From positions 15,734 through 79,733 of IMG/VR virus record IMGVR_UViG_3300046674_000485: a stretch of 64,000 bases of DNA; one strand, given 5' to 3'. The translations under genes were made by a program, and so were the position numbers. This DNA is from a virus (taxonomy: Duplodnaviria > Heunggongvirae > Uroviricota > Caudoviricetes). Position 1 is the stretch's first letter, and every line of letters begins with the position of its first letter. Shown piece after piece: positions 6,311 to 41,300 of the stretch. Under the pieces are notes generated by a model, which worked only from the letters and a program-made list of their open reading frames with translations, was not told the DNA's origin and did not search any database.

Positions 6311-6600
6311 TGCCGACCGACGCCGAGATCATTGCGCTGCGCAAGGAGTGCTTCGGCGGCCGCTTCGGGGCGCCGGCGCGCACGCCCTGGGGCGACACGC
6401 TGAAGTTCGCCAGGGCGCTGCTCGAGCGCTACGGCAGGACCGACCTGACGCCGGACCAGATCGACGCCATCCTCCTGGCCGCCGGCAGCACCGGGGAGAA
6501 GCAGGTGTGGTTCACCCGGCCGGAGGCGCGGCGCGCCGTGATCGCTGCTGCTAGGCCAGCAGATCCGCAGGCGTCTTGCCCGCAGCCAGCGCAGCCTTGA
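6307..6600 (+). CDS. hypothetical protein, 97 aa
   Basis: ORF track; ATGA overlap; 3' 50 nt overlap the convergent H-NS-like gene. Confidence 0.4.
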   Translation: MMPTDAEIIALRKECFGGRFGAPARTPWGDTLKFARALLERYGRTDLTPDQIDAILLAAGSTGEKQVWFTRPEARRAVIAAARPADPQASCPQPAQP

Positions 6601-6907
6601 ACCACTCGGGCCTCTTGCCCATCCCGCCCCAGGCATTGCCGCTCTCGTCGCGGTACTTGATGGGGCGGCCTGCCTTTGCCGGCGGCTTGGCGGACTTGGC
6701 CCGCTCGATGGCTGCCCTGGCGATCGCCGGCGCCGTGCCGCGCTTGGTCTTGCGCCCGAAGATGTCGACCTCCGTCAGCCCGTAGTGGGCGACGGCCTCC
6801 TTGATCTTGGCGATCACCTCCGCCGCCTCGCTCTTGCGCAGCACCTCGGCCTGGGCCTGCAGTTGCGCGATCTGTTTCTGAAGCTGGGCCAGGGTCGTCT
6901 GTGCCAT
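6551..6907 (-). CDS. H-NS-family nucleoid-associated protein (betaproteobacterial BpH3-like)
   Basis: 118 aa: N-terminal coiled coil MAQTTLAQLQKQIAQLQ; C-terminal RPIKYRDESGNAWGGMGKRPEWF DNA-binding motif; only the last 118 codons of ORF 6551..7624 are real. Confidence 0.8.
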   Translation of the reverse strand: MAQTTLAQLQKQIAQLQAQAEVLRKSEAAEVIAKIKEAVAHYGLTEVDIFGRKTKRGTAPAIARAAIERAKSAKPPAKAGRPIKYRDESGNAWGGMGKRPEWFKAALAAGKTPADLLA

Positions 6908-6944
6908 GGGAAAGTACCTATTACGTTGAAAGGCGCAGAGGATA

Positions 6945-6963
6945 CCAACATAAATCCGTTGGC
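6945..6963. promoter_or_regulatory. operator-like inverted repeat CCAACATAAATCCGTTGGC
   Basis: same GCCAAC...GTTGGC family as other early promoters; sits in the divergent region between the H-NS-like gene and the gene at 7004. Confidence 0.45.
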
Positions 6964-7003
6964 CTGCTAACATGACGTTACAACCACCATCGGAGAAGAC
7001 GCC

Positions 7004-7207
7004 ATGAAGAAGATCCTCGCCGCCGCCCTCCTGGCGCTCGCCGCCTCCCAGGCCTTCGCCGTCACGGCGTTCTGGAATGGGCAGATCCAGTTCGTGACGA
7101 CCGTCTCCTATCAGCAGGGCGTGCGCTGCGGCTACACCTACCCAGGCGGGACCGTCACCCAGGTCTTCATCGGCGGCACCTGCCCCAACCAGATCGAAGT
7201 CCAGTAG
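7004..7207 (+). CDS. small secreted protein, 67 aa
   Basis: ORF track; N-terminal signal peptide MKKILAAALLALAASQAFA; RBS GGAGAAG. Confidence 0.55.
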   Translation: MKKILAAALLALAASQAFAVTAFWNGQIQFVTTVSYQQGVRCGYTYPGGTVTQVFIGGTCPNQIEVQ

Positions 7208-7224
7208 CCCCGGCCACCCCAGCG

Positions 7225-7251
7225 AAGCGCCCACCCCGGGCGCTTTTTTTT
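7225..7251 (+). terminator. rho-independent terminator
   Basis: AAGCGCCC-ACCCC-GGGCGCTT hairpin followed by an 8-T run. Confidence 0.7.
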
Positions 7252-7260
7252 CGCGCGCTC

Positions 7261-7345
7261 GCAACTTTCTGTTGTTGCGCCAATGAAAAGTGTTGACTCC
7301 CATTTGGTTCATGTGCAGAATCAAACCCGTCAACAACTTGTTGGC
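7261..7345 (+). promoter_or_regulatory. early promoter/operator copy 3
   Basis: GCAACTTTCTGTTGTTGC palindrome; TTGACT 7293-7298, 17 nt spacer, CAGAAT; TGTGCAGAATCA box; GTCAACAACTTGTTGGCGCAACAACAGGAAG. Confidence 0.55.
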
Positions 7346-7363
7346 GCAACAACAGGAAGATTC

Positions 7364-7645
7364 ATGCAGGCCATCACCACCAAGTACTTCGGCCCGACCA
7401 ACACCCGGGGCGCGCGCATCAAGGCGAGCTGCCCAGCGGGTTCCGTATCGGTCCCCTACGACGACGAGCTGAACACCGAAGAGATGCACACCGCGGCCTT
7501 CAAGGTACTGGTCGCGAAGCTCGGCTGGACCACCCCGAGCTACGGCAACTGGTTCATCGGCGGCACCCAGGCCGGATACGTCTTCGTCGCCTCCGGCCGC
7601 GAAGGCATCGGCGCCGGCTCGCACTTCACCTATCAGGTCGCCTGA
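7364..7645 (+). CDS. hypothetical protein, 93 aa
   Basis: internal ATG 7364 of ORF 7283..7645 after AGGAAG; the upstream part of that ORF is the promoter region. Confidence 0.55.
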   Translation: MQAITTKYFGPTNTRGARIKASCPAGSVSVPYDDELNTEEMHTAAFKVLVAKLGWTTPSYGNWFIGGTQAGYVFVASGREGIGAGSHFTYQVA

Positions 7646-7647
7646 TC

Positions 7648-8043
7648 ATGGACTCCCTCAACGTCGGCCTGGACGACCGCGTCTCCGTCTTCGCCATCTG
7701 CCAAGCGCATCAACAGCTCGAGTCCGACTACAACCACGGCGGCTGGTTGCGCGAGCGGCCCAGCAACCAGCGCCGCAAGGAGTCCACCGGCTGCCAGCTG
7801 CTGCGCCTGAAGTTTGAGTCGCGCAGCTGGTGGGTGGAGATCTGCCAGGAGGTCGACCCCGACGTCGGCTGCGACCCAGACGACGATGCCGTGCGGGACA
7901 TCTACCTGTACAACGTGCTGAAGTGGGGCCTGCCAATCGACGCCGAGATGATGGCCTTCATCAAGGCCCGGTACGTCGAGTCGTTCTGGTCGAAGTACCC
8001 GCAGTGCCAAGGGATCGACTACCTCCAGGGTCGCGCGCCGTGA
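7648..8043 (+). CDS. hypothetical protein, 131 aa
   Basis: ORF track; 3-nt gap after upstream stop; GC3-rich. Confidence 0.55.
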   Translation: MDSLNVGLDDRVSVFAICQAHQQLESDYNHGGWLRERPSNQRRKESTGCQLLRLKFESRSWWVEICQEVDPDVGCDPDDDAVRDIYLYNVLKWGLPIDAEMMAFIKARYVESFWSKYPQCQGIDYLQGRAP

Positions 8044-8218: not shown

Positions 8219-8443
8219 ATGGCACGAGACAGAGGCATCCACCTCGCCAAGGAGCTGATCGCCGCCGCAGGCCTGACTGCCGACGAGATCAGCGTCACCA
8301 AGAAGAGCGCGGTGCGCGCCATCGTCCGAGCACCGGACGGCCGCACCGAGCTGCAGTTTTTCCCCGGCACCCCCAGCGATTGGCGGGGGCGCCACAACAA
8401 GCTGGCACTGCTTCGGCGGTTCCGCGAAGGCCCAACCCAATGA
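8219..8443 (+). CDS. hypothetical protein, 74 aa
   Basis: ORF track; GC3-rich. Confidence 0.5.
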   Translation: MARDRGIHLAKELIAAAGLTADEISVTKKSAVRAIVRAPDGRTELQFFPGTPSDWRGRHNKLALLRRFREGPTQ

Positions 8444-8820
8444 CCCTATCCCACGCCCAGATCATGAACGTCAACACCACCTTCCTCGCACCCGTCGCGG
8501 CGATGAGCGCGCCCCTTCCGCGCGACGCCCAGGCGCTGCAGCTCATCAACGTGCAGCGCCGCTATGCCGACAAGCCCGGCGCCCTGCCCGACCTCGAGGA
8601 GCGCGAGCAGCTGCAGCCCGGCAACTGGGTGCTGCTCGTGGTGCGCGACTACCCCGTCGAGAAGAACGTCGGCGTGCACATCACCGAGCGCCGCGGCGAC
8701 GGCAGCTACACCGGCATCACCCTGGCCTCGACGTACGCCGTCGGCCGCGGCACCCAGATCACCTTCGGCCCCGAGCACATCCTGCAGCTGGACACCCTGG
8801 TCGAGGAGCTCGCATCGTGA
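8440..8820 (+). CDS. hypothetical protein, 126 aa
   Basis: ATG 8440 (ATGA overlap); frame of ORF 8089..8820. Confidence 0.5.
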   Translation: MTLSHAQIMNVNTTFLAPVAAMSAPLPRDAQALQLINVQRRYADKPGALPDLEEREQLQPGNWVLLVVRDYPVEKNVGVHITERRGDGSYTGITLASTYAVGRGTQITFGPEHILQLDTLVEELAS

Positions 8821-9008
8821 CCGAGGTCCGCGTGAAAGTCGCCGGCCGCGAGTACGTAGTGACGAACTTCAACGGGCACCGGAAAGTGCTGGCGGTTTGC
8901 CGGCGCCGCTGCAACAACGGGCGCATCACCGAGTCCCTGCGCTTCATGCGCGCAGGGTCCGCGCTCTCGCTCGCCGCCATTGCCCAGGCCGACAGGAGTG
9001 CATCGTGA
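8817..9008 (+). CDS. hypothetical protein, 63 aa
   Basis: ORF track; GTGA overlap. Confidence 0.4.
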   Translation: MTEVRVKVAGREYVVTNFNGHRKVLAVCRRRCNNGRITESLRFMRAGSALSLAAIAQADRSAS

Positions 9009-15078: not shown

Positions 15079-16079
15079 GCCCTTGCTCCTGCTTCCTTGC
15101 GATACGAGTCCCAGGTGAAGCTCACCCAGGGTGATGTCTCGAGCAGCCGGTCTTGGACCCGCTCGCCGACGAATGTCTTCAGTCCCTCGATGTCCTGATT
15201 CGTGATCAGGATCACCGGCAGCATGCGGCGGTAGCGGCGGTCCATCACCTCGAAGAGCATCAGCAGCTCCTCGTTCGTGCCGCGCTGCGCACCCACCTCA
15301 TCGAGCACCAGCAGCGGGACCGAGCTCAGCTCCTCGATCACCTCGCCCTCGGTGCGCCCGCCCTTCTTTCCGTACGTGTCGCGGATCGCGAACAGCATGC
15401 CCATCAGCGTGGTGTAGACGCCGACGTGCTTCGGGAAGATGGCCTGCAGGATGCCGCCGGCGAGGTGGCTCTTGCCCGTGCCTGGGCCGCCGCCGAAGAT
15501 CAGGCCCTTGCCCTTGTCCAGCAGCTCGTCGAAGCGCCCGGCGTAGGCCCTGGCGATGGCCTGGGCGCGGCGCTGCTCCGGCGTCGTGGCGATGAAGCTC
15601 TCGATGGTCCGGCCGATGAAGCGCTTGGGGATCGCGGTCTGGCCCAGCAGATCGGTGAGCTGGGTCATGCGCGCATCGGCGGCGCGCGAGTGCTCGGCCG
15701 CCTGCACCTCGTCGACCTCGGCCTGGGCGCAGCCAGGGCACCGGGTCCACACGGTGTGCGGCGTCTTGCCCAGGCGGTACTCGGTGCCGCGGGCGGCGTA
15801 GAAGCCGTGCGTTTCGCAGTTGCGCGGCGATTCGCCCAGGTCGACGGACAGCGGACCCGTCGGCAGCGACGCCGCGATCGGCTTCAGCGGCTGCTCGGCA
15901 GGCACGATGGAGGCGAAGCATGCCGGGCAGCTGGTCCAGCGCTCGATGGCATCCCGGCCCGGCAGGTGGTAGCGGGTGCCCTTGGCCTGGAAGGCGCCGT
16001 GCGCGGGGCAGCGCTGCTCGCGCTCGCCCAGGTCGGTCTTCAGGTCGTCGTCGCGCATCGGCTCAGTGGACTGGGGCAT
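15075..16079 (-). CDS. DnaC/IstB-like AAA+ helicase loader with duplicated N-terminal zinc-ribbon
   Basis: Walker A GGPGTGKSHLA and Walker B LLVLDEVG; N-terminus has two RCPAHG...CPAC / NCETHG...CPGC units. Confidence 0.8.
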   Translation of the reverse strand: MPQSTEPMRDDDLKTDLGEREQRCPAHGAFQAKGTRYHLPGRDAIERWTSCPACFASIVPAEQPLKPIAASLPTGPLSVDLGESPRNCETHGFYAARGTEYRLGKTPHTVWTRCPGCAQAEVDEVQAAEHSRAADARMTQLTDLLGQTAIPKRFIGRTIESFIATTPEQRRAQAIARAYAGRFDELLDKGKGLIFGGGPGTGKSHLAGGILQAIFPKHVGVYTTLMGMLFAIRDTYGKKGGRTEGEVIEELSSVPLLVLDEVGAQRGTNEELLMLFEVMDRRYRRMLPVILITNQDIEGLKTFVGERVQDRLLETSPWVSFTWDSYRKEAGARA

Positions 16080-20508: not shown

Positions 20509-20836
20509 GACCGCCCTTCACCACTGGCCGCGTGTGCGTGTTGAGCCAGCCCGAGCGCTCGGCCAGGGCGCACGCCTGTTGGGCGGCCTCCTGGCTGAAG
20601 TACGGCTGCACGCGGATCTTCGTCGGCGTGGCCTTGCGCATGTACGAGTCCTGGCTGAAGGGCTCGTCGCCGCCGCTCTTGCGGTGGTGCGCGCGAGCGT
20701 CGTCGATCTGCTTCGGGCTGAAGCCGACAGCGAGCCAGCCCTTATGGGTTGCGACGACGTCGGCCTTGGCCTTCTTCGTCTTGGGCGGCGCCGCCTTCGT
20801 CAGGTCGATCGGGTCGCCATGAATGTTGAAGAACAT
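20501..20836 (-). CDS. hypothetical protein, first gene of the early operon divergent from the repressor (Cro position), 111 aa
   Basis: in-frame ATG 20836 of ORF 20501..20923, directly downstream of the operator-bearing promoter. Confidence 0.45.
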   Translation of the reverse strand: MFFNIHGDPIDLTKAAPPKTKKAKADVVATHKGWLAVGFSPKQIDDARAHHRKSGGDEPFSQDSYMRKATPTKIRVQPYFSQEAAQQACALAERSGWLNTHTRPVVKGGHA

Positions 20837-20868
20837 GTGGTAGAGCTGTGGTCTGAGTGAAGCCCACG

Positions 20869-20939
20869 ACTCTACCAACATTCTGTTGGCTGGGCAACAT
20901 AAACAGGTTGTCCACCTCAACACAAATCCCGTGTATCAT
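20869..20939. promoter_or_regulatory. divergent promoter/operator region between the early operon and the repressor gene
   Basis: minus TTGCCC, 17 nt spacer, TAGAGT with palindromic operator CCAACAGAATGTTGG (20875-20889) in the spacer; plus-strand TATCAT 20934-20939 before the repressor RBS GGAG. Confidence 0.6.
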
Positions 20940-20996
20940 CTGGTTTCCGAGCAAGTCGAAACGAAGTTTTTTCGCAGTCAACGGAGTTAGCGAACC

Positions 20997-21434
20997 ATGA
21001 AAATCAAAGACCAGATCCGCGCCCGCCGAGAACAGCTCGACATCAGCGTCGTCCAGCTGGCCGAGCGACTGGGCACTAGCGACCAGACCGTGCGCTACTG
21101 GGAGAGCGGCCGCAGCCGCCCGAACAAGCACATGATCCAGCCGCTGGAGCAAGCCCTGTCGTTCACGATTGACTTTCATGAGGGCGAGTCGCCGACCAAC
21201 CCCTTCACAGCACAGACGCTGAACGAAGAGGGGGTCGAGATGGCCATTCAGTTCGCCAAGCTTCCTGTTGACGTGCGGCGTCTCTTCAAGGATCTCGCGA
21301 GCCGATACCAGCCCCACGAGGGCGAAGTTGCTGGCTCGGGTTCGACTGCGAAGAAGCAGGCCTCTCAACAAGACAAAACCCGCAGCCAGAAAGCCACGAA
21401 TGTCGCAAGCCGCCACCTCGCCAGCCACAAATGA
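20997..21434 (+). CDS. XRE-family (CI/Cro-like) transcriptional repressor
   Basis: HTH LDISVVQLAERLGTSDQTVRYWESGRSRP; divergent from the early operon. Confidence 0.8.
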   Translation: MKIKDQIRARREQLDISVVQLAERLGTSDQTVRYWESGRSRPNKHMIQPLEQALSFTIDFHEGESPTNPFTAQTLNEEGVEMAIQFAKLPVDVRRLFKDLASRYQPHEGEVAGSGSTAKKQASQQDKTRSQKATNVASRHLASHK

Positions 21435-21690
21435 ACTCGCCCTCCTGGGTATCAAGGAGCCGGATCTCGCCAACGAGATTGACTGGGAGGCGGCGCGAAT
21501 GTGCATCGAAGCACTCAACCTCGTCCTCTCGGGTGAGGCCCAGGCCTTCGAGGCGAGAGTGCACTGCTACAGCGGTGACGTCGTGGAGATGAAGTCCATC
21601 GCCGGCGCCGAGACGCAAGAAAAAGAAGCAGCCAACGTGGCCGTTTTTTTTGCTCGACGAGCCAACAAAATTTTGTCGAACCAACAATAA
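21400..21690 (+). CDS. possible small protein overlapping the repressor 3' end (uncertain)
   Basis: in-frame ATG 21400 of ORF 21268..21690; GC3-rich but no clear RBS; 3' end runs through a T-run and an operator-like element. Confidence 0.3.
   Translation: MSQAATSPATNELALLGIKEPDLANEIDWEAARMCIEALNLVLSGEAQAFEARVHCYSGDVVEMKSIAGAETQEKEAANVAVFFARRANKILSNQQ
21659..21687. promoter_or_regulatory. operator-like palindromes (ACAAAATTTTGT, GAACCAACAA)
   Basis: GAGCCAACAAAATTTTGTCGAACCAACAA, same CCAACA family. Confidence 0.35.
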
Positions 21691-22077
21691 GTAAGGTGTT
21701 AGACTTACATCGCCGACGCAAGAAGAGGTCGGCGAATTGACCCAGAAGATGGGTCAAGAAGGAGTCCCTGGTCAGTGATTGGTCAGGGCTTTCGAGAAAG
21801 GCAAGAGTGTAGCGGCCGGTAACCAGTTGTAGGGATTGTCCTACTGATGCAACTGGGAATTTGTCACACACCAGACGCCTTTCTCGAAAGTGTCATACGA
21901 AAGTAACAGAGCGTGATGCCGCCCTCGGGCGGGTCTTCAAGAGAGCCAGTCGGTCTGGGTTCCATCTTTTCAGGGTGTAGCCAAAGTGCCAGATCAGCGG
22001 GCTCTCTTGAGGGTGATCAATCCGGGCCCATCCATTCATAGCTGGTTGGCATGAACCCGGTGCGATCACTCCCTTGA

Positions 22078-22153
22078 TGGGGGCTCGCCAAGTGGGAAGG
22101 CACGTGGTTTTGATCCATGCATTGAGAAGGTTCGATTCCTTCGCCCTCTGCCA
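22078..22153 (+). tRNA. tRNA-Gln (anticodon TTG), slightly non-canonical
   Basis: TGGGGGC TC GCC..GGC A CGTGG TTTTGAT CCATG CATTGA GAAGG TTCGATT CCTTC GCCCTCT G CCA; very close to E. coli tRNA-Gln; U1:U72 mismatch and 6-nt variable loop. Confidence 0.7.
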
Positions 22154-22168
22154 GGATGGATAGTTTTT

Positions 22169-22244
22169 TGCGGGATAGCTCAGGCGGTAGAGCAGGGGTC
22201 TCATACGCCTCGTGTCGCTGGTTCGAGTCCAGCTCCCGCAACCA
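22169..22244 (+). tRNA. tRNA with CAT anticodon (Met elongator or Ile2/lysidine type)
   Basis: TGCGGGA TA GCTC AGGCGGTA GAGC A GGGGT CTCATAC GCCTC GTGTC GCTGG TTCGAGT CCAGC TCCCGCA A CCA; perfect 7-bp acceptor stem; encoded CCA; T-arm resembles Ile2. Confidence 0.85.
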
Positions 22245-23245
22245 GAGTGCGAGTGTGTCGTGAAGCAGGTATGCCGGCCCGAAGCTGGATCAGTCCTGTA
22301 AGCGACACCAGAGCACGCCAGTAAGGCCCAAGGCAGATGGGGCGCATCGAGGTTCAAGCCCTTGAGACAACGGCCTCGCCACGGGCCGGTGCTGCAGCAC
22401 GAAGGAGATACGCAGTGGACATGATGTGTCTTGCTTCGGCAGGGCCATCATGAGAGACAGCAGGCCGACGAGCGAACCGTCGGTCGCAGAGCCAGGGCGT
22501 CGCTGCCTGGGTGATGCGCGAGAGGATGCAGGGCCACCGCGGCCCGGCGGCCTGGACCGGATGGATTTCCGCCCAGGCGAATCGAAGCAGCTGCCTCCCA
22601 TGATGGAAGTCAGCCCAGAACTCCGGCATCGCATGCCGGCCGCCCAGGGTTAAGTGTGGTGGGATTGTTGACCTGACGCCGGCTCAGGTATGCGAAGCCG
22701 GCACCATCATGACTGCAGCCTGCGAGGTTCGATTCCTCGGGGACGGGGGAAAGTCCAAACGGGTAACGCCCGCCCTATCTCGATGTGCTCCAGGCCGCAG
22801 CCATGATGGTGGCGCACCGCTGGGTGCACCTTGAAGTAGTGAAACGACACATCGTCCCGGTGGCCACCGCGGGCGGTTGAGGGAAGCGAACTTGCGTCGG
22901 GTCAGATCCGGCCACTGTCAACCATCATTGAAGCGGGTTGCGTCTTTAACCGGCTCCCGACGGTAGGCATACCGAGGGCTGCGCGATGTCGACGTCCAGG
23001 CCTGGACAGCCCGCTTCAATGATGGTCAACCGATGCGCGATAGACACGCGCCCCGGCGGGTTGAGGTTTCTCGGCCGCCATCAATCATCAAGAGAGCTGC
23101 AACTGAACAGGGCTTCGGCCCGGCGGGACCATGGCCGTGCTCGAGCCACCCTGCAGTAGGCGGCAGCTCTCTTGATGGTGTTGCGCAGCAATGCGTGAGC
23201 GCTGGGCCAGTAGCCGGGGGTGACGTCACCGGCGGCCGTCCAGCG

Positions 23246-23319
23246 ATCGCTGTAGCTCAGTTGGTAGAGCAGCGGCCGCAAGCCGTGTGTCGGTGGTTCG
23301 AATCCACTCAGCAGCACCA
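23246..23319 (+). pseudogene. tRNA-like element (pseudo-tRNA)
   Basis: canonical D-arm TAGCTCAGTTGGTAGAGC and T-arm GGTGGTTCGAATCCACT with CCA end; anticodon arm has a 5-nt loop (GCGGC-CGCAA-GCCGT) and a 4-5 bp acceptor stem. Confidence 0.6.
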
Positions 23320-23629
23320 TCAACCATCATTGAACCGCTTTCGTGCTGGTGCACCAGCAACGCTAGACGATGCTCAGACCCCGGTCGAACGGGGCCCGGT
23401 CATTCGAGACAGGCCTTTCGAAGGCGCGGCGAGAGCGGTTCAATGATGGTGAAGGCGAGAGCCTGACGGAGATCCCGCCCAGCGCGCGCGAGCGCCTGGA
23501 CCGATGCGCCCGCAAGGGCTGGCAGAGCGCGGGCACCATCAATGCAAATGCTTGCACCCTGGCTACAACAGGGCGCAGAGGCGACTCGATAAAGGAAGTC
23601 GTCGCAGCTGGTGTGAGCCCCGCAACTTC

Positions 23630-23669
23630 GCCAACTATCTGTTGGCAGTCCAACGATCCGTTGTATACT
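23630..23669 (+). promoter_or_regulatory. sigma70-type promoter with overlapping operator for the leftward-like operon
   Basis: TTGGCA 23642-23647, 16 nt spacer, TATACT 23664-23669; palindrome GCCAACTATCTGTTGGC 23630-23646 overlaps the -35. Confidence 0.65.
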
Positions 23670-23696
23670 GTTGAGCTCTTCAAAACGAGTCTCGAC

Positions 23697-23852
23697 ATGA
23701 TCGCTTGGTACTGGCTTCTCCCCGTCTTCTTCGCCGGCATCGCGGCCACCCTGGCCGTCATCGCCCTCCTCCGCTGCAGCGACAACGCCTCCGCCATGGA
23801 GTGCGAGCAGGACTGCGATCAGCACTCCACCCCGTACTTCCTGCCCCTGTGA
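23697..23852 (+). CDS. small membrane protein, 51 aa
   Basis: in-frame ATG 23697 of ORF 23370..23852; hydrophobic stretch WYWLLPVFFAGIAATLAVIALL. Confidence 0.5.
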   Translation: MIAWYWLLPVFFAGIAATLAVIALLRCSDNASAMECEQDCDQHSTPYFLPL

Positions 23853-24241
23853 AGTGCCCGATCTGCGGCGGCGAGTCGCGCGTGCTCGACACGCGTGATG
23901 GCGCCAACCTCACCACGCGCCGCCGGCGCCGCTGCCTGGACGTCGACACCCACACGTTCACGACCATCGAGGGCCACGCCACGATCATCGACCGCTCGAG
24001 CAAGGTCAAGCGCGCAGCCGACACGATCCTGGCCAGGATCGAGCTCTGGCACCGCGACATCGAGATCGCGCGACAGCTCTACACCGGGTACAAGCCGCTC
24101 GCCGAGCGCTTCGGCCTGACGCATGACGGCCTCTATGCGGCGGCACAGCGCGGCCGCGCGCACATCCGCGCGATGGCCCCGAAAAAGATTTTGCTTAAGA
24201 ACCAACAAAAACTTGTTGACGCAAACGAAGTGCGTGCATAA
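23849..24241 (+). CDS. zinc-finger protein with Ogr/Delta-like C-x2-C-x22-C spacing
   Basis: GTG 23849 (GTGA overlap); VKCPICGGESRVLDTRDGANLTTRRRRRCLD; 3' end overlaps the next promoter. Confidence 0.5.
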   Translation: MKCPICGGESRVLDTRDGANLTTRRRRRCLDVDTHTFTTIEGHATIIDRSSKVKRAADTILARIELWHRDIEIARQLYTGYKPLAERFGLTHDGLYAAAQRGRAHIRAMAPKKILLKNQQKLVDANEVRA

Positions 24242-31576: not shown

Positions 31577-32467
31577 ATGAACTTCTCTTTCCTCAAGCCC
31601 AAACACATCATCAGCATGGTCGGCGCGCTCATCGCGCTCATCTTCCTGCTGGCCGTCAATCCACTGCACACGGTGCCCACCGGCTACCGCGGCGTGATCA
31701 CCCAGGGCGGCCGGATCCTGGGCGTCGAGCCCGAGGGCTTCGTGCTGGTGGCGCCCTGGCAGAAGCTGACGATCTTCAATGTGCGCGCCGAGGCGGCCAA
31801 CGTCCAGAACGCCGACGGCGCGACGAGCGACACGCAGCCCGTGACCACGAGCCTGACCGTGCGCTACAGCATCTCGCCCGACAAGGTGGCCACGGTCTTC
31901 GAGCAATACAGCCGCGACGGCAACCTCGACAGCTACATCATCACGGCCACGAACGAGACGTTCAAGTCGGTCACCGCGCGCTTCACGGCCACCGAGCTGA
32001 TCAGCAAGCGGCAGATGGTGTCGAACGAGATTGCCGGCCTGCTGCGCACCAAGGTTTCGATCTACGGCGCCCAGGTCATCAACATCGACATGACCGAGTT
32101 CAAGTTCTCGCCGGACTACATGAAGGCGATCAACGAGAAGGTGACCCAGGAGCAGCTCAAGCAGGCCGCCGACAACAAGTACCTGACGGTGCAGTCCGAG
32201 CAGAAGCAGAAGGTCGCCATCGCCCGGGCCGAGGCTGATGCCGTGCAGGCGCGCGCCGATGGCGAGGCCTATGCCCTGACCAAGGTGGCCACCGCCCAGG
32301 CCGACGCACTGAAGATCCAGAACGCCGCCCTGGCCCAGAACAAGGACGTGCTCGAGCTGCGCCGCATCGAGGTCGCCATGGAGCAGGCGAAGCGCTGGAA
32401 GGGTGATGTGCCGACCAGCGTCTACGCCGGCGCCCCGATCCCCTTCCTGAGCGTCGACAAGAAATGA
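31577..32467 (+). CDS. SPFH/band-7 (prohibitin/HflC-like) membrane protein
   Basis: N-terminal TM helix; YRGVITQGGRILGVEPEGFVLVAPWQKLTIFNVRAE SPFH core; C-terminal coiled coil. Confidence 0.8.
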   Translation: MNFSFLKPKHIISMVGALIALIFLLAVNPLHTVPTGYRGVITQGGRILGVEPEGFVLVAPWQKLTIFNVRAEAANVQNADGATSDTQPVTTSLTVRYSISPDKVATVFEQYSRDGNLDSYIITATNETFKSVTARFTATELISKRQMVSNEIAGLLRTKVSIYGAQVINIDMTEFKFSPDYMKAINEKVTQEQLKQAADNKYLTVQSEQKQKVAIARAEADAVQARADGEAYALTKVATAQADALKIQNAALAQNKDVLELRRIEVAMEQAKRWKGDVPTSVYAGAPIPFLSVDKK

Positions 32468-32763: not shown

Positions 32764-33085
32764 CTAGATACCCTATCTAGGGTAGCTACTCGAGATAGTC
32801 TAGATACCCTAGATAGGTTATCTAGCCAATGTATTGGATGTATTGACGATACATTGAATAGCTATCACGCCGTCGCTCCGGACAGGCCTCAACCCCCGGT
32901 GTTACCCCGGGGCCGATGTGGCGGCGGCGTGATGGATCCTGTTGGCTCTCCAATACATTTCATACATACGATACATCGTGTAGCTACGATAGGTATCCTA
33001 TGAATTAATGCTCCTCTATGTATCGTATCTGTTGGATGGTCAATAGATAGTGTTGACAGGCTATGGATTGCATGTATCCTATGCA
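32764..33085. repeat. iteron/centromere-like repeat field upstream of parA
   Basis: five CTAGATA/TATCTAG half-sites at 32764-32825, including CCCTAGATACCCTATCTAGGG; ATACAT x3 at 32953-32976; GTATCCTATG x2; AT-rich for this genome. Confidence 0.6.
33053..33080 (+). promoter_or_regulatory. parA promoter
   Basis: TTGACA 33053-33058, 16 nt spacer, TATCCT 33075-33080, overlapped by a GTATCCTATG repeat; AGGAG RBS. Confidence 0.6.
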
Positions 33086-33113
33086 GCGTCTAAACGTTAC
33101 ATACAGGAGCGCC

Positions 33114-33806
33114 ATGGCCAACAAGATCATCCTCGTCGGCAGCGAGAAGGGCGGGGTGGGCAAGACCACCGTCGCCTTCAACCTCGCCACCATGCGGGTC
33201 AAGCAGGGCAGGAGCGTCCTGCTGCTGGACGCCGACAGCCAGGGCAGCTCCGCCATGTGGGCCGGGCTGCGCAGCGACGCCGAGTTCCAGCCGACCCTGG
33301 TGTGCGTGCAGAAGTCGGGGAAGATCGGCCGCGATCTGCTCGAGCTGAGCAAGACCTACGAGATCATCATCGACGCCGGCGGCCGCGACTCCGTCGAGCT
33401 GCGGCAGGCGATCGCCGTCGCGGACCAGTGGATCATCCCGGTGAAGGCTGGCCAGCTGGACCTGTTGTCGATCACCAAGATGCGCAACCTGAAGCGCGAG
33501 GTCTACGAGCGGGTCGAGCAGACCCCCGAGACGCGCGTGCTGCTGAACGCCATCGCGCCGTCGACCAGGGAGGGCGAGGACGCCCGGGCCGCGCTGCTGC
33601 AGCAGAACGAGGGCGAGGAGGCTGGCGGGGCAGGGGACATGCCGGTCATGTCCGCCATGCTGACCGACCGCGTGGCGGTGCGCCGCTCGATCACGCACGG
33701 CTGCGCGGTGGTCGAGCTGCCAGCCAGGGAGAACGCCGGCGCCGCGGTGGCCGAGTTCAAGAGCGTGTTCGAAGAAGTCTTTGGAGAGAGCTATGTCGAG
33801 GCCTAA
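33114..33806 (+). CDS. parA: ParA/MinD-family partition ATPase
   Basis: deviant Walker A KGGVGKTT; LLLDADSQGS; IIIDAGG; in-frame ATG 33114 of ORF 33063..33806. Confidence 0.85.
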   Translation: MANKIILVGSEKGGVGKTTVAFNLATMRVKQGRSVLLLDADSQGSSAMWAGLRSDAEFQPTLVCVQKSGKIGRDLLELSKTYEIIIDAGGRDSVELRQAIAVADQWIIPVKAGQLDLLSITKMRNLKREVYERVEQTPETRVLLNAIAPSTREGEDARAALLQQNEGEEAGGAGDMPVMSAMLTDRVAVRRSITHGCAVVELPARENAGAAVAEFKSVFEEVFGESYVEA

Positions 33807-35116: not shown

Positions 35117-35311
35117 ATGCTATTGCTCACCGTCGCCCTGGTCGCCTTCATCGGGTTCTTCGCCCTGTTCCCCGACAAGGTGCGGGCCATCAAGGATGGC
35201 TCCGGCACCGTCGTCGGGTGGCTGGTGGCGATCGGGGCGGCAGGCTGGGTGATCGGCGCGCTGCTGCAGCTGGCCCGCTACGGCACGATCACCACCCCCT
35301 GCTGCGGCTAA
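35117..35311 (+). CDS. possible small two-TM membrane protein, 64 aa (uncertain)
   Basis: ORF track; GC3-rich; weak RBS; convergent and stop-overlapping with the giant gene. Confidence 0.3.
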   Translation: MLLLTVALVAFIGFFALFPDKVRAIKDGSGTVVGWLVAIGAAGWVIGALLQLARYGTITTPCCG

Positions 35312-38300
35312 TAGATCGCCTTGGCGTTGTCGCTCTGCCGGTCGCGGATCGCCTGGATGCGGTCACGCTTCTCGGCCGGCGACGCGGCGCTGCGCTCGAT
35401 GTCGTGGATCGACTGGTTCGCCTTGGCCTGGGCCTGCTTGACGTGCTCCACCTTGGTGTAGCGCGCGAGCTCCTCGGCGTGGTCCTTGGCGAACGCCTTG
35501 GCGTCCTCGGCCTTCCCCTCCTTCATCAGCTGGCGGTGCGTGGCGTAGGCCTGCTCGAGCGCCTTGGCCTGCTCGTAGACCGAGCTCACGTACTTGGAGC
35601 TGGGCTCCGGCAGGCTGCGCACGATACCCTGGGTCACGACCCGCAGGTAGTCCGCCTCCGGCCGGGTCGGCTCGTTGGTCATCGGGCGGATGGCCATGTC
35701 CGCGCCCGACACCACGAAGGTGCCGAGCCAGCCGAAGTAGCCCTTCAGCAGTGAGTCGATCTGCACCGGGCTCAGGCCCTCGGCGCCGACCGTGCTGGTC
35801 ACCGAGTTGAGCGCCGTGCTCGCCGCGCGCGCCACCATGCTGGTGCCCGAGTTGTAGCGATACTCCGACTTCAGCTTCTCCATGCCGGCCGTCTCGATCG
35901 GGCGGCCGGTGAAGGCGTCCTTGTTCGAGTAGACGTCGATGATCGGCTTGACCGCCTGGGGGATCGGGTTCATCGACAGGTTGTCGCTGGCGATGTGCAG
36001 CAGCCGGTCGCGGAAGCGCGTGGCCGTGAACTCCTTGTTCGTGAACAGCTCCACGCCGCGCTCGGCCAGCGTCGCGATGGCGCCGATCTCGAATGGCTTG
36101 GGGATGCGGAACGCGGTGCCGCCCAGCTTGAACCACCAGAAGCCATCGCGGTCGAAGTCCTCGCGCTTCTTCCAGTCCTCGTCGTCGCCGTACGCGGCCA
36201 TCAGGGCGACCGACACCAGGGCGACGGCGCCCGTCACCATGGCGAAGCGGCGCGGATCCTCCTGGGCTGCACGGCCCAGCTTGTACAAGCCCTGCAGCCG
36301 GGCGTTCATGAACGGCACGACCTGGGTCAGGAACCGGATGCTGGCCCAGGTGCCCTGCATCGAGAAGTCCATCAGGTCGCGCGCCATCAGCGACGCCTCG
36401 GCGTGGCCGACGCCCTGCTTGCGCAGCTGGCTGTAGAGCGCCGAGCGGTTGATCTCTTCGCCGCGGTTGCCGATCTCGTGATAGGCCTGGACCGCCGGGT
36501 CGACGAACTTGTCGTAGAAGGCCTTCACCTTCTCCGGGTTGTTCAGGATCGTCGACTCCTTGACGCCGCGCTTCACCAGCTGGCGGATGCGCTCGGAAGC
36601 GTTGCCGTCCATCATGGTGCCGAATCGGATCAGACCGCCGCTGGCCAGCGCGGAGACGTACTCCTGGCTGTCGCGGGCCGAGTGCTTCAGGCCGTCGGCG
36701 ATGTTCTTCACCGGGTTGTAGGAAAGGCCGCTCGTGCCGATGGCCTGGATCGTGTCGCGGATCAGGTTGCGCACCTTGAACGCGGGCGACGCCGTCACGC
36801 CGGCGGTGAGCCAGTGCTTCATGGTCGACAGCGCGTCCATCAGCGGGCCCTTCAGGCCGGCGTATTCCAGGCTGTTGATCGCGGCCAGGACGTAGGGATC
36901 CTCGACCAAGAAGTGGCGCTGCTTGCCGCCATCCATGAACCAGACGACGCCGTTCTTGTTGCCGGTCGACTTGCCCATCTCGCGCACGGCATCCTCGCTC
37001 GCCTCGATGGCGACGCCGACGTTCTGCGCTGCCTCGAGGGTCGCGCGCGCGGCGCGGTTCTTGGCCGCCGCGTCGATCAGGTGGGACCAGTTCTGCAGCG
37101 TGTTGGACAGCAGATCGGAGCTGAGCTTGTCCTTGCCGCCCTTGAGCTTCTTGAAGGCCTGCTGGCGTGCGATGCCGCCCTTGATCTTCGAGCCCATGAA
37201 GGCGCCATCCTCTTCGCTCACGCGGTAGAAGGGCACGTAGAACTCGCTCTCCCAGAACTTGCGCGCCTCGCCGTCGATCAGGCCGCTCTGCTCGGCCATG
37301 TCCATCGTGTTCTTGTTGAACTCGTTGAACTTCTCCAGGCTGTCGCGGTAGGCCGCGGCGCGGTCGGTGGTCGTGCTGCCATCCTGCATCGTGTACGGGC
37401 GGGCCAGCTGGCCGTCGGCGAGCGACTTGCCGGCTGCGATGTCCTCGGCCGTGAAGAGGTGCTCGCGGTCTTCCTTGGACAGCTTCTCGGCGCGGTTGGC
37501 CGCGATCCACTGCATGAAGTCCTCGAGCTCGGCGCCCAGCGGGTTGCCGACCTTTTCGATGAAGCCGCCCGTCATGTCGGCGTCGTAGGCGTTGTCCACC
37601 AGCTTCAGCTTGCCGTGGTGCAGCAGCGCCTCGAACGCGCCGGCCGCACCCTTGGACAGGCGCGCCAGGGTGTAGGCCTCGCCGCCGAGATCCTTCAGCG
37701 GGCGGAATTGGTCGACGAGGCCCTGGGCCATCTTCTTGCCGATGTCCTGGCGCGCCTCCTTCAGGCGCTCCTTCAGGCTCTTCTCTTCGGTCGTGCGGCC
37801 GATGTTGCGGAACATCGCCTCCTGCTCTGGCGTGTAGGCGCGGCCGCTGTGGCCGGTCGTGCGCTCCTTCGAGAACAGCGGCGCGCCGCCCTCGAGCTGC
37901 TCGCGCATGGCTGGGGTGATGTCGATGGCGAGCTGATTGGCTGCTGCAGCTGCAGAGTCTTCAACCTCCTCTGCAATCCTGTAGGTGCTCTCGCCATAGT
38001 CGTCATCCTCCTCGATGGCTGACAACTTGGCTTCGGCGGCGGCGCGGCTGTCGACCTCGGCAACCCAGTCGACATTGCCCGTGTCGTTCCAAACCTCTTC
38101 GATGATGTACTTGGTCTTTTTTGCGCCGACGCTTGTCTCGCCCACCTTCCCGCCCAGCTTTTTCGCGAGGTCGCGTGCCACCTGGGGGACGATGCCATCG
38201 TAGAAGGCCTTCATGCCTTCACCGCCGACTTCGAGCTCGACGCCGCTCAGGATGCGCTGGCTGTTCATGTCGCGCTTGGTGTCGAGCAGCTTGCGGGCGA

Positions 38301-41300
38301 CTTCCTTGCCGATGATGTCATCGAGCTCGCTGTCGCTTTCAACCTGCTTCTTGAACACGTTGGCGCCATCCTTGCGGGCGACCAGCGTCTTGTCATCGTA
38401 GTAGACGACCTGATCAATCTGCTTGCGCAGGCTGTACAGGTCGGCCGCCTGCTTGCCGTTGATGAAGGCCACCTTGTCGTAGTCGCCGCGCGCGGCCTCG
38501 ACCAGGGCGCGCTTCATGGCCAGGGCGACCCAGCTCTTGGTGTCGGCGACGAAGGGGCCGGCTGGCGCGCCTTTGGTGAGTTCCGATTCGCCATACGTGC
38601 GGTGCGCTTTCTTCAGCGCCAGGGCGTCGTCGTCTGCGTGCACGAAGCCGATGACGTTTCCGGCCACCACCACCTCGTAGGTGTCCTCGTCGTCCGTCTC
38701 GTCAGTGCTCTTGCGCACGGTGACATCGAGCTTCTTGGCGAAGCCGATCCTCTTGGCCTGCTGCCCCCAGTCGGACTGGATCTCGTTGACGAACAGCACC
38801 TTGTTGCCGTCGGCATCGGTGCGGTCGTCCAGGCGCAGATGCGCCAGGATGTTCTTCTGGTCCCAGTGGCCGGAGGTGTAGGGCTTTGGCCGGTCTGGCA
38901 GGCTCTTCATTTCCTTCACCGCGGCGACGTTCTCTTCGTCGGTGAGATCAACCCACCGCTTGCCGAAGAGGCGCTTGGCAATCGCGTCGGTCGTCGAGTC
39001 GTCCGGCAGCGTGATCAGCACCTCGCGGTAGTTGTCGCCGCCGGGCACGGTGTACGTGGCGTACTTGGTCTCGACGGTCTCGGGGCCGTACTTATTGACG
39101 GCGTCCTTCAGATGTTGCGGCAGATCGCGGTAGTCGATGTCCTCGCCATCGGGGTCGATGAAGTGGGCGGCATCGCCATAGTCATCCACGGCGATCTTGT
39201 AGCCGGTGCCGGCGAAGGCTTCGCGCATGGCTGCGTCCTTGCTTGGGTCGCGACCCAGCACGGTCTCGCCAACCTGCACGCCGTTCTCGTCGACCCAGGT
39301 GGCGAGCTCGTCCTTCGAGATCTTGTCGCGGCCGCGCATCTTGAGCATGTCGAAGACGCCCGACCACTCGAGCTCGTCGGCCTTCACGCCCATCTTGCCG
39401 GCGTTGGCCTTGAGCCACTGGGCCCAGGCCGGCGCGGCCTGCGTCGCGAGGCGCTCGGGCACGGCGGCCAGGGCGCTCGAGAGCTGGCTGTAGTAGATGC
39501 CGCGGTCGGCGCTGCGCTTGGCATCGCCCGCCTGCAGTCGCTCCCACGCCAAAGCAGCCGGGCCCGTCAGCGTTTTGGGGTCGACCTTTTCCTGCGTGCC
39601 CCACTTGCGAAGCCCGTACACATCAGGGCGACCCAGGCTCGGCACTCCCTGCGTCTTGTCCAGCGCGATGCCACCCTTCTTCAGGATGGCGGCCGCCCGA
39701 TCGAAGTCCATCTCGCCGCCGGCGGCGCTGTCATCGATCATGGTGCGCAGATCGGAGGCGATCTTCTTGTCGTCCGTTTCCGCGGGCCACTTGCCGGCGC
39801 GCTCCAGGCGCGACAGGTCGTTGGCCGCAATCTCGATCAGGTTGGGGCCCGACAGCACCTCGGTGCGGAATGGGCGCGTCGGCGCCAACCGGCTTCGCGG
39901 GTACTTCTTGTCGAGAGCTTCGAACGCGGCGAGGCGCTCTGGGCCCGCCGGGATCTCGTTGGCCGCGGCCCAGTCGGCACGCGACTCGCGGTCGGCGGCG
40001 GTCTGCAGCTCGTCGTCCCAGACTTGGCCGAACTGCACGTCGCCAGCCCCCAGCTTCACCCGGAACGCGTGGATCGCGCGCTCCTTGGTGGGGGCGTACT
40101 TGAGGTACGCGCGCGCCTGCTTGACGGCGCGCTCGGCCTCCTCGGCATCGCGTGCCAGATAGCCGTACAGGCCATTGCCCAGCGGGCGGATCTGCATGCC
40201 GCCGGCGCCCTCGCCCTTGCCGAGGTAGCCCGCATCGAGCTGATCGAAGTCGCTGCCGGCGTGGATGATGAGGTGCTCGCGCTCGGCGCTGAACTTCACG
40301 CTGGCGTCGGGGCGCATGAACTTCTCTTTCAGCTCGGCGCGGTGGGCCCACGAGATGGGCGTCAGCGTGCCGGTGAGGAAGCCCTGCTCGGCCTTGTCGT
40401 GCGCCCAGCGCTGCGGGGTCGCGAACAGGCTCGTGAGCGGCTTGGCGTCGTCGGTGGTGCCCACGTAGTAGACGACCGGCACGCGCTCGACGCCGGCCTT
40501 GGCCAGGGCCATCATGCGGTGGCGGCCCTCGTGGCCGGTGACCTTGAACGAGCCGCGCATCGGCGAGTCATCCTCGATCTTGCCCTCGAGGAAGATCTCC
40601 TGGCTCTGCTTCTTCAGCTCGGCCGCATCCAGGGGCGTCGCCTCGCTCTCCAGGCGCGCGCGCTCGGCCGCCGGGGTGGTGGCCGCCAGGAAGTCCTTCG
40701 GGCTCACCCAGCCGGCGTAGGCCTTGGTGCGGTTGTCGTCCTGGGTGTAGGCGTACTTCGACATCAGCTGGTCGATGCGGTCGCCATCCCAGGCGGCGCG
40801 GTCACGGCTGCGGGTGATGTCTTTCTTCGACGGGTCGAAGCCGCCGTCGTTGCCGATGGCCGACTTCACCTGGGCCGACTCGAAGGCGACGAAGACATCG
40901 CCATGCGTCGCGTCGCGGAAGACGACGCCGTCGTGCCCGGCGCGCTTGAGCTGCTCCCACAGGGCGCCCTGGGCCTTCTTGTAGTTGGACGCGTACTTGA
41001 TGACGTCCGGCCACTCCGCGTAGACCTTGGGATTCTGGATCGACAGGTAGACCGGGATGACCCGGCTGGCCGTGTTCTTGGGGACGTACTTGCCGCCCTC
41101 GAAGATGTGGCCCATGCTGTCGTTTTCGACGGCGTACTGGGATGCGCCCTCGGTGCTGTCGGTGAACCAGATGCCGTTCTTCGGCGCCTTGAAGGACTTG
41201 AAGTCGACGTCGGCCGAGGTGCCGGTGTAGACGACCTTGGGCTTGCCGTCAGCGTCGACGATCTTCGATTCGCGGAACCACGCCTTGAAGGCGGGCGTGC

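Follow-up and report, generated by a model that had tools for sequence, protein, structure and literature searches.

Organisation of the array

The sequence analysed here is a 64,000-nucleotide (nt) stretch of phage DNA with a G+C content of 65% (positions 15,734 to 79,733 of IMG/VR record IMGVR_UViG_3300046674_000485, Caudoviricetes), referred to as the window throughout. An initial reading of the letters alone (the original prediction) had drawn attention to a region without a credible open reading frame (ORF), placed between a CI-like repressor gene and an early promoter, which contains seven long hairpins and several tRNA genes. On the analysis presented below, the region from 21.8 to 23.55 kb is best explained as a rightward stable-RNA cluster, in which three tRNA genes and about a dozen tRNA-like or otherwise structured modules are arranged head to tail, in a phage that also encodes tail genes, a RecT/SSB module and a ParA-like ATPase. 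The probability of this explanation is put at roughly 0.6.

The features of the array are given below in order of position. U1 to U7 are the seven hairpins, Y3 to Y7 are modules which occupy the gaps between them, and the own stem is the part of a hairpin arm which lies inside the CCAUC/GAUGG strands. Y3, Y4, Y5 and the hairpin at 22013..22069, the last of which had been missed, are readings of the sequence.

21789-21890, + strand: hairpin U1, a perfect stem of 14/14 base pairs (bp), CTTTCGAGAAAGGC/GCCTTTCTCGAAAG, with a 74-nt structured interior, z -6.5
21937-22010, + strand: hairpin U2, arms TCAAGAGAGCC.../...GGCTCTCTTGA, with two G-U pairs and one C-A mismatch on this strand, z -4.9
22013..22069, + strand: additional hairpin, GTGATC(AAT)CCGGG ... 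CCCGG(TGC)GATCAC, immediately 5' of tRNA-Gln
22078-22153, + strand: tRNA-Gln(UUG), called by ARAGORN, Rfam 41.8 bits
22169-22244, + strand: tRNA-Met(CAU), called by ARAGORN, Rfam 60.1 bits
22245..22432, + strand: element Z, non-coding, beginning directly after the CCA of tRNA-Met and including a T-arm-like motif at 22351
22445-22606, + strand: U3, own stem UGAGAGACAGC/GCUGCCUCCCA, with two A-C mismatches on this strand, and a CCAUC-A / U-GAUGG extension, z -3.7
22600..22710, + strand: Y3, closed by GAUGG/CCAUC, with a 7-bp hairpin GCCGGCU..AGCCGGC adjoining the 3' closing strand
22699-22814, + strand: U4, own stem UGACUGCAGCCUG/CAGGCCGCAGCCA, with two A-C mismatches on this strand, z -5.2
22804..22926, + strand: Y4, closed by GAUGGU/ACCAUC, with a hairpin GUCGG-GUCAGAU-CCGGC near the 3' end
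22920..23027, + strand: U5 (arm pair 22906-23041, perfect core 22921-23026), own stem UUGAAGCGGG/CCCGCUUCAA plus ACCAUC-A / U-GAUGGU, z -6.1
23021..23083, + strand: Y5, closed by GAUGG../..CCAUC, with a hairpin GCGCG-AUAGACA-CGCGC
23086-23177, + strand: U6, own stem AGAGAGCUGC/GCAGCUCUCU plus AUCAUC-A / U-GAUGGU, 15/15 bp, z -5.3
23172..23323, + strand: Y6, a 13-bp helix TTGATGGTGTTGC/GCAGCACCATCAA around an R2-like 5' part (see below) and the tRNA-Cys(GCA)-like gene
23246-23319, + strand: tRNA-Cys(GCA)-like gene, called by ARAGORN, Rfam 43.8 bits
23323-23450, + strand: U7, own stem UUGAACCGCUUUCG/CGAGAGCGGUUCAA, with U-G wobbles on this strand, plus ACCAUC-A / U-GAUGGU, 20/21 bp, z -7.3
23441..23545, + strand: Y7, a conserved module closed by CAAUGAUGGUG/CACCAUCAAUG, its 5' closing strand overlapping the 3' arm of U7

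The lack of a credible ORF in the region is supported: the mechanically called ORFs have no PHROG match and none reaches the cut-off of 0.78 for G+C at third codon positions. Where two tRNAs and a pseudo-tRNA had been proposed, ARAGORN and Rfam call three tRNAs; the Cys gene has a poor 7-bp acceptor stem and lies inside a longer 13-bp helix formed by 23172-23184 with 23311-23323. The window was searched against Rfam 15 both at gathering thresholds and at E values of up to 10, and tRNAs were the only matches apart from noise. None of the seven hairpins scored as a tRNA (0/7 with Rfam RF00005 or ARAGORN). Rfam searches of five related loci and of a canonical unit of the R1 family, described below, returned tRNAs, noise and one weak alignment to C4, and a BLAST search of the whole stretch against isolated phages gave matches through its tRNAs only.

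A repeat search recovered all seven arm pairs (7/7) at the places where they had been reported. Folding of each hairpin was compared with 200 dinucleotide shuffles, giving z values from -3.7 to -7.3, and no shuffle (0/200) equalled the native sequence for any of the seven. The heptamer CCATCAT occurs 24 times in the window compared to 6.2 expected copies (0/100 shuffles), and eight of the copies fall within 22445-23449, where their strand alternates strictly between + and -. U1 differs in having arms of another type.

Several details required correction. The loops measure 30-128 nt, not 50-125 nt, and the 3' arm of U4, quoted as GGCTGCGGCC..., actually reads GGCCGCAGCCATGATGGTGG. The two orphan T-arm-like motifs are present, with true starts at 22726 and 22351, 1-2 nt from the positions reported. 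The location of all 5' arms on one strand had been taken to mean that the units are direct repeats; it is uninformative, as inverted repeats read alike on both strands. The interior of U4 includes CGAGGTTCGATTCCTCG and GGAAAGTCC..GGTAACGCC, and the supposed relationship of one loop to RNase P was not substantiated: models of bacterial RNase P gave no match at E values of up to 10, and the resemblance comes down to two 9-mers at 22748-22777, GGAAAGTCC and then GGTAACGCC, which are like CR-I and CR-II of RNase P.

Composite arms and abutting modules

Each CCATCA-type arm opens with a segment of at most 7 nt that has CCAUC, or a variant differing by one base, at its end; an A comes next, and then an own stem, which in the CCATCA-type units of related phages is 9 nt long, corresponding to the usual stem length of R1 units (8-9 bp). 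The window arms of U3-U7 divide in the same way, into an own stem (UGAGAGACAGC, UGACUGCAGCCUG, UUGAAGCGGG, AGAGAGCUGC and UUGAACCGCUUUCG) of 10-14 bp, an A/U pair and CCAUC/GAUGG, with Y3-Y7 in the gaps between units.

In the relatives, the sequence 3' of ...AUGAUGG is another module, which starts with GAUGG(UG) and ends with (CA)CCAUC. This downstream module is an intron-like tRNA in loci L006 and L024 (Rfam 44.9 bits), a short tRNA-like element in L012 and a member of a second family, R2, in other loci. On the 5' side of each unit a small hairpin is followed by ..CCAUC, which reads as the T-like hairpin and 3' closing strand of another module. Where the shared strand is a variant (GAGGGUG in L047, GUUGGUG in L121), both partner strands change together.

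The CCATCAT arms are composite, being made up of a module's own closing stem, an A/U pair and the acceptor strands of the two neighbouring modules, a feature which the original prediction had overlooked. As the neighbouring Y modules share one closing-helix consensus, GAUGG(UG)/(CA)CCAUC, their strands are complementary, and because these closing strands and the A/U spacer pair can join across the unit, the helix of the enclosed unit is lengthened by 6-8 bp. The alternation of CCATCAT copies likewise follows from the alternation of units and Y modules with composite arms.

Conservation in a related phage

Only one locus of the comparison set, L149, proved to be a true relative of the window; its 545-amino-acid (aa) protein is 34% identical to a 542-aa protein encoded downstream of the array. 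When the 542-aa protein was used as an anchor, nothing was found in viral contigs and one distant relative was found in the protein collection. L149 has the same gene order, with a 545-aa/RecT/YqaJ/SSB block and a 2.2-kb array at the same place, which contains tRNAs, element Z, a homologue of U3, a canonical R1 unit and Y7. The positional homologue of U3 (8381-8520) has a stem, CCAUCAUGGGUG/CACCCAUGAUGG, which is changed and still paired, and its interior has the same orientation as in the window. The position of U7 is taken by the canonical R1 unit (8620-8835, 41 bits).

Element Z is 79% identical over 117 nt to L149 7891-8003 (the L149 element spans 7811-8003), with five compensatory pairs between the two sequences. 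About 37 consecutive bases within it are identical, CGGTGCTGCAGCACGAAGGAGATACGCAGTGGACATG; this block shows an AAGGAG resembling a Shine-Dalgarno sequence, and a mini-ORF which starts with GTG and runs for 12 codons in the window and for 5 in L149. Z has no match in Rfam, and pattern scans for its block in viral and metagenome contigs gave none. Y7 is 77% identical to L149 8828-8941, with three compensatory pairs. Sequence conservation outside the tRNAs resides in the inter-hairpin elements Z and Y7 and not in the hairpin interiors, another point that had escaped notice, and BLAST of the stretch against all 149 comparison loci returned the tRNAs, Z, Y7 and arm fragments only. Separately, the core of Y7, GACCGAYGC-[GNRA-capped hairpin]-UGGCAGAGCG, was seen again in the variable arm of an R1 unit of another phage (L095, 4830-4864).

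The position downstream of a CI-like gene is kept in 10 related loci of the CCATCAT subgroup. All 10 have a CI-like repressor gene (helix-turn-helix (HTH) plus Peptidase_S24) 0.5-3 kb upstream on the same strand, and several have RecT or ParB-like early genes downstream of the units. Taken together, the non-coding stretch and the comparative evidence from related phage loci support the proposal of a structured, tRNA-derived RNA locus.

The R1 family of tRNA-like elements

The pattern CCATCATTGAA-N(75-105)-TTCAATGATGG (22 specified bases), representing the arm frame, was found in 16 IMG/VR contigs, and the same frame was found in five Comamonadaceae assemblies or bins, together with three unrelated matches, when one genome per species was searched. 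In most of these units the 5' arm is followed by CGGCGTGGA(A/T)GGACACGC (as RNA, CGGCGUGGAWGGACACGC), and the 3' arm is preceded by a hairpin, for example GCTGG-AATCAAGC-CCAGC. The first of these motifs on its own (17 specified bases) occurs in at least 120 IMG/VR contigs. The family to which it belongs is named and defined here as R1, and was studied in a comparison set of 149 loci, of which L025-L144 are from IMG/VR. All counts for R1 (132 motif instances, 128 stems, 117 loci and their subsets) are among the matches listed.

An R1 unit has a closing stem, usually of 8-9 bp, followed by CG, a D-like hairpin GCGUG-GAWGGA-CACGC, one or more hypervariable arms of 26-250 nt, a T-like hairpin GCCGG-UAUCAAGC-CCGGC and the 3' strand of the stem, which the T-like hairpin directly adjoins. 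The T-like loop reads U-N-UCRANY, a canonical T-loop apart from one extra base after U54. To judge from the sequence, the layout corresponds to the order of a tRNA cloverleaf. A twister-like reading of the T-like loop was considered and set aside; Rfam scans gave no ribozyme match, and the loop is read instead as a T-loop carrying one extra base.

A closing stem was present in 128 of the 132 motif instances. It is most commonly 8-9 bp long (76/128 units), while in about a quarter of units it measures 15-21 bp, a length that is not confined to the CCATCA kind. As an independent test, the 8 nt before the motif were compared with the 8 nt after a separately located T-like hairpin: at the abutting position at least 7 of 8 pairs were formed in 93 of 99 units, compared to 7/99 for a control shifted by 3 nt. 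In an alignment of 43 sequences, 98.3% of stem cells were paired and all nine stem pairs covaried, with 162 double-change cells; no shuffle reached this level (0/500), and slid controls were 29-45% paired. Cells other than Watson-Crick, read on the tRNA-like strand, were G-U or U-G in 20 cases and A-C or C-A in 2. Of the tRNA genes lying no more than 1 kb from an R1 unit, all 21 share the strand of the unit. R1 units are found within tRNA arrays at spacings of 0-20 nt, once beside a permuted tmRNA, and in L004 a three-unit array lies between two + strand intrinsic terminators. These findings point to R1 being an RNA which is read on the tRNA-like strand.

R1 has no match in Rfam, and exact-sequence searches of the literature with the arms and core motifs gave nothing relevant. 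It appears to be a large family and, as far as checked, an undescribed one; keyword searches led to the YrlA papers and to a 2023 catalogue of about 10,000 unnamed viral candidate RNAs (PMC10690425), among which R1 may be listed. No cluster of protein genes is common to more than 6 of the 117 loci, no conserved motif was found in the variable arm, and a 3' CCA is encoded within 6 nt of the unit in only 11 of 71 cases. The family extends to lytic-type phages and to replication or nucleotide-metabolism modules. Units which are unannotated occur in isolated phages of Caulobacter (phage DMCA, locus L145, 25557-25683), Pseudanabaena, Alcaligenes (phage QDWS595, L147) and Komagataeibacter, and a truncated unit occurs in a Bordetella phage. 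Some units were seen directly between protein genes, as in L140, where one is separated by 4 nt from the preceding stop codon and by 10 nt from a dCMP-deaminase-like ORF that follows it.

R2 and other recurring modules

R2 follows R1 units in arrays of Burkholderiales phages (L003, L013, L016, L047, L049, L106 and L121) and has the consensus GAUGGUG-AA-UGCGCAG..UGCGCG, a variable part, and GCCGG-(A)GAUCAGC-CCGGC-CACCAUC. Across seven sequences, pairing in its helices reaches 96% and four pairs covary. A third flavour of module was also observed, a tRNA-like element with a long acceptor (L149 8050-8140, L006 1658-1739 and L003 152-242), in which the stems measure 14-20 bp and the 3' arm is immediately preceded by a canonical T-arm; two of these are odd tRNAs according to ARAGORN.

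Relationship of the window hairpins to R1 and R2

The closing-stem frame of the Comamonadaceae subgroup of R1 (CCAUC-A-own stem) fits U3-U7, and over 16-17 nt U5 has the very arms of R1 units from other phages, around an unrelated interior. The R1 D-like motif, GCGUG-GAWGGA-CACGC, is absent from the window. A T-like hairpin beside the arm is present in U4 only, on the - strand (CGAGG-AAUCGAAC-CUCG), unrelated hairpins being found there in U5 and U7; the orphan T-arm at 22726 is the reverse complement of this R1-type hairpin, which the CGAGGTTCGATTCCTCG motif resembles when read on the - strand. The strand of U4 is ambiguous, and it may be an inverted or decaying unit. By eye, a ..ACGCUAGAC.. 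stretch beyond an enlarged first hairpin seems to be retained in U7, in common with the L149 R1 unit, and GCGG-NN-GCGU seems to be retained in U5. With the R2 model, Y7 scored 14.1 bits (E 0.009 in 3.2 kb), the best in the region and mainly due to the closing stem, and Y6 scored 7.7 bits; the hairpin of Y5 is similar to the D-like hairpin of R2.

Proposed maturation of the array

In the stable-RNA cluster as proposed, the long hairpins are the closing, acceptor-like helices of alternate modules (X), each 1 nt from its flanking Y modules. The array would be transcribed rightward along with the tRNAs as one or a few precursors, which the tRNA-maturation machinery would separate into modules. RNase P would be expected to cut at the 5' side of each module, and with 1-nt spacers such a cut would leave the preceding module with a discriminator-like 3' nucleotide. 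The short native helices, rather than the long composite ones, would presumably form co-transcriptionally. Our favoured guess is that the non-tRNA modules may be tRNA mimics or decoys which act on host factors that handle or target tRNAs.

A bolder version of this scheme, which we hold tentatively and consider considerably less probable than the cluster itself, is that the array, R1 and R2 together represent a new class of phage tRNA mimics, with a non-canonical elbow, release by RNase P from zero-spacer concatemers and a hypervariable arm that acts in trans. The elbow would be formed by the D-like GGAAGGA loop and the T-loop with one inserted base, and the arm, diversified by an arms race, would engage host defence nucleases that target tRNAs, or enzymes that handle them, for example as a decoy or a programmable partner.

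A number of observations weigh against the stable-RNA cluster. On the sequence comparisons made, the window hairpins are not detectably members of R1 or R2: run unfiltered over the whole window, the R1 model found nothing above noise (best hit 12.4 bits, E about 1, in U4 on the - strand), and U5 scored 8.6 and 9.3 bits on its two strands, which, the strands scoring alike, is attributable to the stem alone. No homologue of the hairpin interiors was found among the 149 comparison loci, and since neither the models nor BLAST gave an R1, R2 or other homologue, the interiors appear to be lineage-specific. The stem mismatches do not choose a strand, with A-C on the + strand in U3 and U4 and G-U on the + strand in U2 and U7. 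The own stems of 10-14 bp are longer than a tRNA acceptor stem, for which reason cleavage by RNase P is not assured. The R1 D-like hairpin served as the search key, which makes its invariance an artefact. In L121 the 5' extension is not plainly the end of an upstream Y module, and the long helix itself may for that reason be under selection. A scan of the window found neither a promoter nor a terminator belonging to the array.

Alternative explanations

The most serious of the alternatives, though in our judgement an unlikely one, is that the long helices are themselves functional, as double-stranded RNA elements for processing or stability (RNase III sites, protectors of 3' ends, or insulators between the repressor transcript and the early operon), the interiors being largely irrelevant. 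This would account for near-perfect stems around interiors that show no relationship among the window, L149 and other loci; at least six unrelated interiors were found within identical arms of 15-17 nt. The 15-21 bp stems in about a quarter of R1 units and the L121 extension, which complements the downstream strand without an obvious upstream Y module, also point this way. The extension nevertheless parses exactly as the closing strands of the neighbours plus 1 nt, the commonest R1 stem is 8-9 bp, and the D-like and T-like hairpins conserved inside R1 units indicate that interiors are not irrelevant. No U-tract follows any of the seven hairpins on the + strand (0/7).

A role as tRNA-scaffolded antisense immunity RNAs, of the type of C4 of phages P1 and P7 and CI of P4, was judged improbable. 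Those are small phage RNAs of the immunity region, which RNase P, acting on an acceptor-like stem, frees from a longer transcript, and here the loops of the variable arm would pair with early-operon mRNA after a similar release. The site between repressor and early operon in 10 or more loci suits this idea, as does a hypervariable arm, which is to be expected of a specificity determinant; in addition, the outer stem and 3' tail of one R1 subgroup (AUGGCGG..CCGCCACC) align weakly to Rfam C4 (12.4 bits, E 9.8). However, the C4 model (RF01695) has no match in the window at E values of up to 10, and R1 is also found in lytic-type phages and in replication or nucleotide-metabolism modules, beyond immunity regions. 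No cis complementarity was detected for R1, the longest exact complements of its variable arms in 1.2-kb flanks being no better than a sense control. RNAduplex scores of the window modules against 30 translation-initiation regions could not be told apart from those for shuffled targets, a comparison which the G+C-rich sequence renders uninformative.

About as improbable is that the hairpins are inert palindromic DNA, either insertions like miniature inverted-repeat transposable elements (MITEs) or decayed, unexpressed tRNA-like relics. The likeness to MITEs and bacterial palindromic repeats is evident: units of 90-160 bp with terminal inverted repeats of 15-20 bp and a common terminal motif. 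The window interiors are unique and without clear R1 or R2 signatures, and U3 and U4 have A-C mismatches on the tRNA strand. Against this, no target-site duplications were found: the units are preceded by (G)GG or CA and followed by TGA or TCA, which are parts of the neighbouring modules. The interiors are single-copy, no unit is dispersed elsewhere in the 64-kb window, and the arms, which are unit-specific and abut structured modules, are confined to the array; the MITE candidate of the original prediction is accordingly disfavoured. The stems still form 15-21 bp with 0-2 mismatches, and in relatives the homologous frames are occupied by RNAs whose covariation is of the RNA type. A retron-like origin, which had likewise been suggested, found no support, in that no reverse transcriptase was seen in a non-exhaustive scan of the neighbouring and long ORFs.

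Still less credit is given to a function at the level of DNA, as recombinase or invertase sites (shufflon-like, or for cassette exchange) or as single-strand initiation sites. Identical arms frame unrelated interiors in the manner of cassettes, the orientation of CCATCAT alternates, U4 resembles an inverted R1 unit, and RecT, an exonuclease and SSB are encoded adjacent. The same scan of ORFs showed no recombinase, integrase or invertase, though, and the arms are unit-specific beyond 7 bp, which fits hairpins rather than a common recombination site. Furthermore, the interior of U3 has kept its orientation in L149, and R1 stems covary freely in sequence.

That the units are Y RNAs of the YrlA type, which tether the Ro60/Rsr protein, is scarcely credible: they share with these RNAs (some phage-encoded, some cut by RNase P) the tRNA mimicry and the plan of a long terminal stem with a tRNA-like domain (PMC4201824), and U4 on the + strand has the YrlA order of 5' stem and then T-arm, but Rfam YrlA (RF02553) reached 25.5 and 21.4 bits against a gathering threshold of 69, across the true tRNAs only, the arms lack the GNCGAA(N)G Ro-binding motif, the order of parts in R1 (D-like, then T-like) is that of a tRNA and not the permuted one, and no TROVE gene, which in YrlA systems lies within 4 kb (PMC4201824), was seen in the non-exhaustive scan of ORFs, those from 18.7 to 29 kb encoding HTH, NrdR-like, RecT, YqaJ and SSB proteins and other long ORFs being negative too.

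Comparison with known phage RNAs

Among described systems the array is comparable, by analogy, to RNAs of phage tRNA clusters such as rnaC and rnaD of T4, and to YrlA and C4. The T4 RNAs ('species 1 and 2' RNAs) are structured RNAs, 120-140 nt long, encoded in a row with tRNA genes and on the same strand; they are matured by tRNA-processing enzymes, and rnaC ends in a T-arm-like hairpin. There is no sequence similarity, and rnaC and rnaD are two single genes, whereas the window has an alternating array with shared closing strands in the early/immunity region of a temperate-type phage. The R1 units of Comamonadaceae phages share with the window units the arm frame (CCAUC-A-UUGAAGCGG) and the genomic slot; the window units differ in lacking the D-like signature and, except perhaps for U4 on the - strand, the T-like one, and in having own stems of 10-14 bp as opposed to 8-9 bp.

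Annotation of phage tRNA clusters usually stops at what tRNA finders detect, and here some 1.7 kb of dense, structured and apparently non-coding sequence surrounds three tRNAs. If the RNAs are expressed, they would represent a sizeable unexplored layer of the interplay between phage and host around the tRNA machinery, with processing, mimicry and counter-defence as candidate roles. The array also offers a practical warning, as very long hairpins can arise merely from abutting modules which share an acceptor helix. R1, present in at least 120 viral contigs and absent from Rfam 15, is a by-product that merits follow-up.

Gene neighbourhood and other observations

The array is flanked on its left side by leftward genes (a DnaC-like loader and others) and by an HTH regulator gene. 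The promoter at its right boundary was located by a promoter scan, and is followed in rightward order by a small membrane ORF, an NrdR-like zinc-ribbon protein, the 542-aa protein, RecT, YqaJ exonuclease and SSB. The ParA-like ATPase, a 5074-aa ORF and the tail genes are more distant.

6551-7624, - strand: ORF with an H-NS C-terminal domain
20997-21434, + strand: XRE-type HTH regulator, left of the array
23642..23669, + strand: sigma-70-like promoter TTGGCA-16-TATACT of the rightward early operon
31577-32467, + strand: Band_7/SPFH protein ORF
33063-33806, + strand: ParA-like ATPase ORF
35308-50532, - strand: 5074-aa ORF

The 5074-aa ORF is predicted to encode a 'polyvalent protein', a type which phages and conjugative elements inject, because its homologue in L149 carries Glucosaminidase, InPase and ART-PolyVal domains. 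The same non-exhaustive scan of ORFs found no RtcB; as it found no integrase either, the element may be maintained as a plasmid prophage. No + strand intrinsic terminator (a G+C-rich hairpin with a U-tract) was reported in 20800-24200. Operator-like CAAC-N5-GTTG repeats were noted on both sides of the TTGGCA-16-TATACT promoter (region 23598-23680), and a similar operator-like CAACAAAATTTTGTCG was noted 3' of the HTH gene (region 21655-21690).

Integron attC sites were considered as a further candidate and rejected: the arms CCATCAT.../...ATGATGG lack the R''/R' cores (RYYYAAC / GTTRRRY) and there are no cassette ORFs between the units. A stretch GGAAGTCC..CGTAACC, similar to the RNase P-like 9-mers of U4, was seen before the units in L109 (about 6025) and in L146 (about 3706); GGAAGTCC is not enriched, with 70 matches compared to about 56 expected. 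L146 is Bordetella phage vB_BbrM_PHB04 (MF663786), which has a large unannotated gap at ~45.0-47.8 kb. Inspected by eye, this gap appears to hold several tRNAs and a permuted two-piece tmRNA, whose acceptor piece ends in GGCTCCACCA and whose coding piece starts with GGGGCCGACCGGTTTCGACGGG and has the tag ANDDYIRAAA, and a mini hairpin with ACCATCATCGAAGCGG arms lies directly after this apparent tmRNA.

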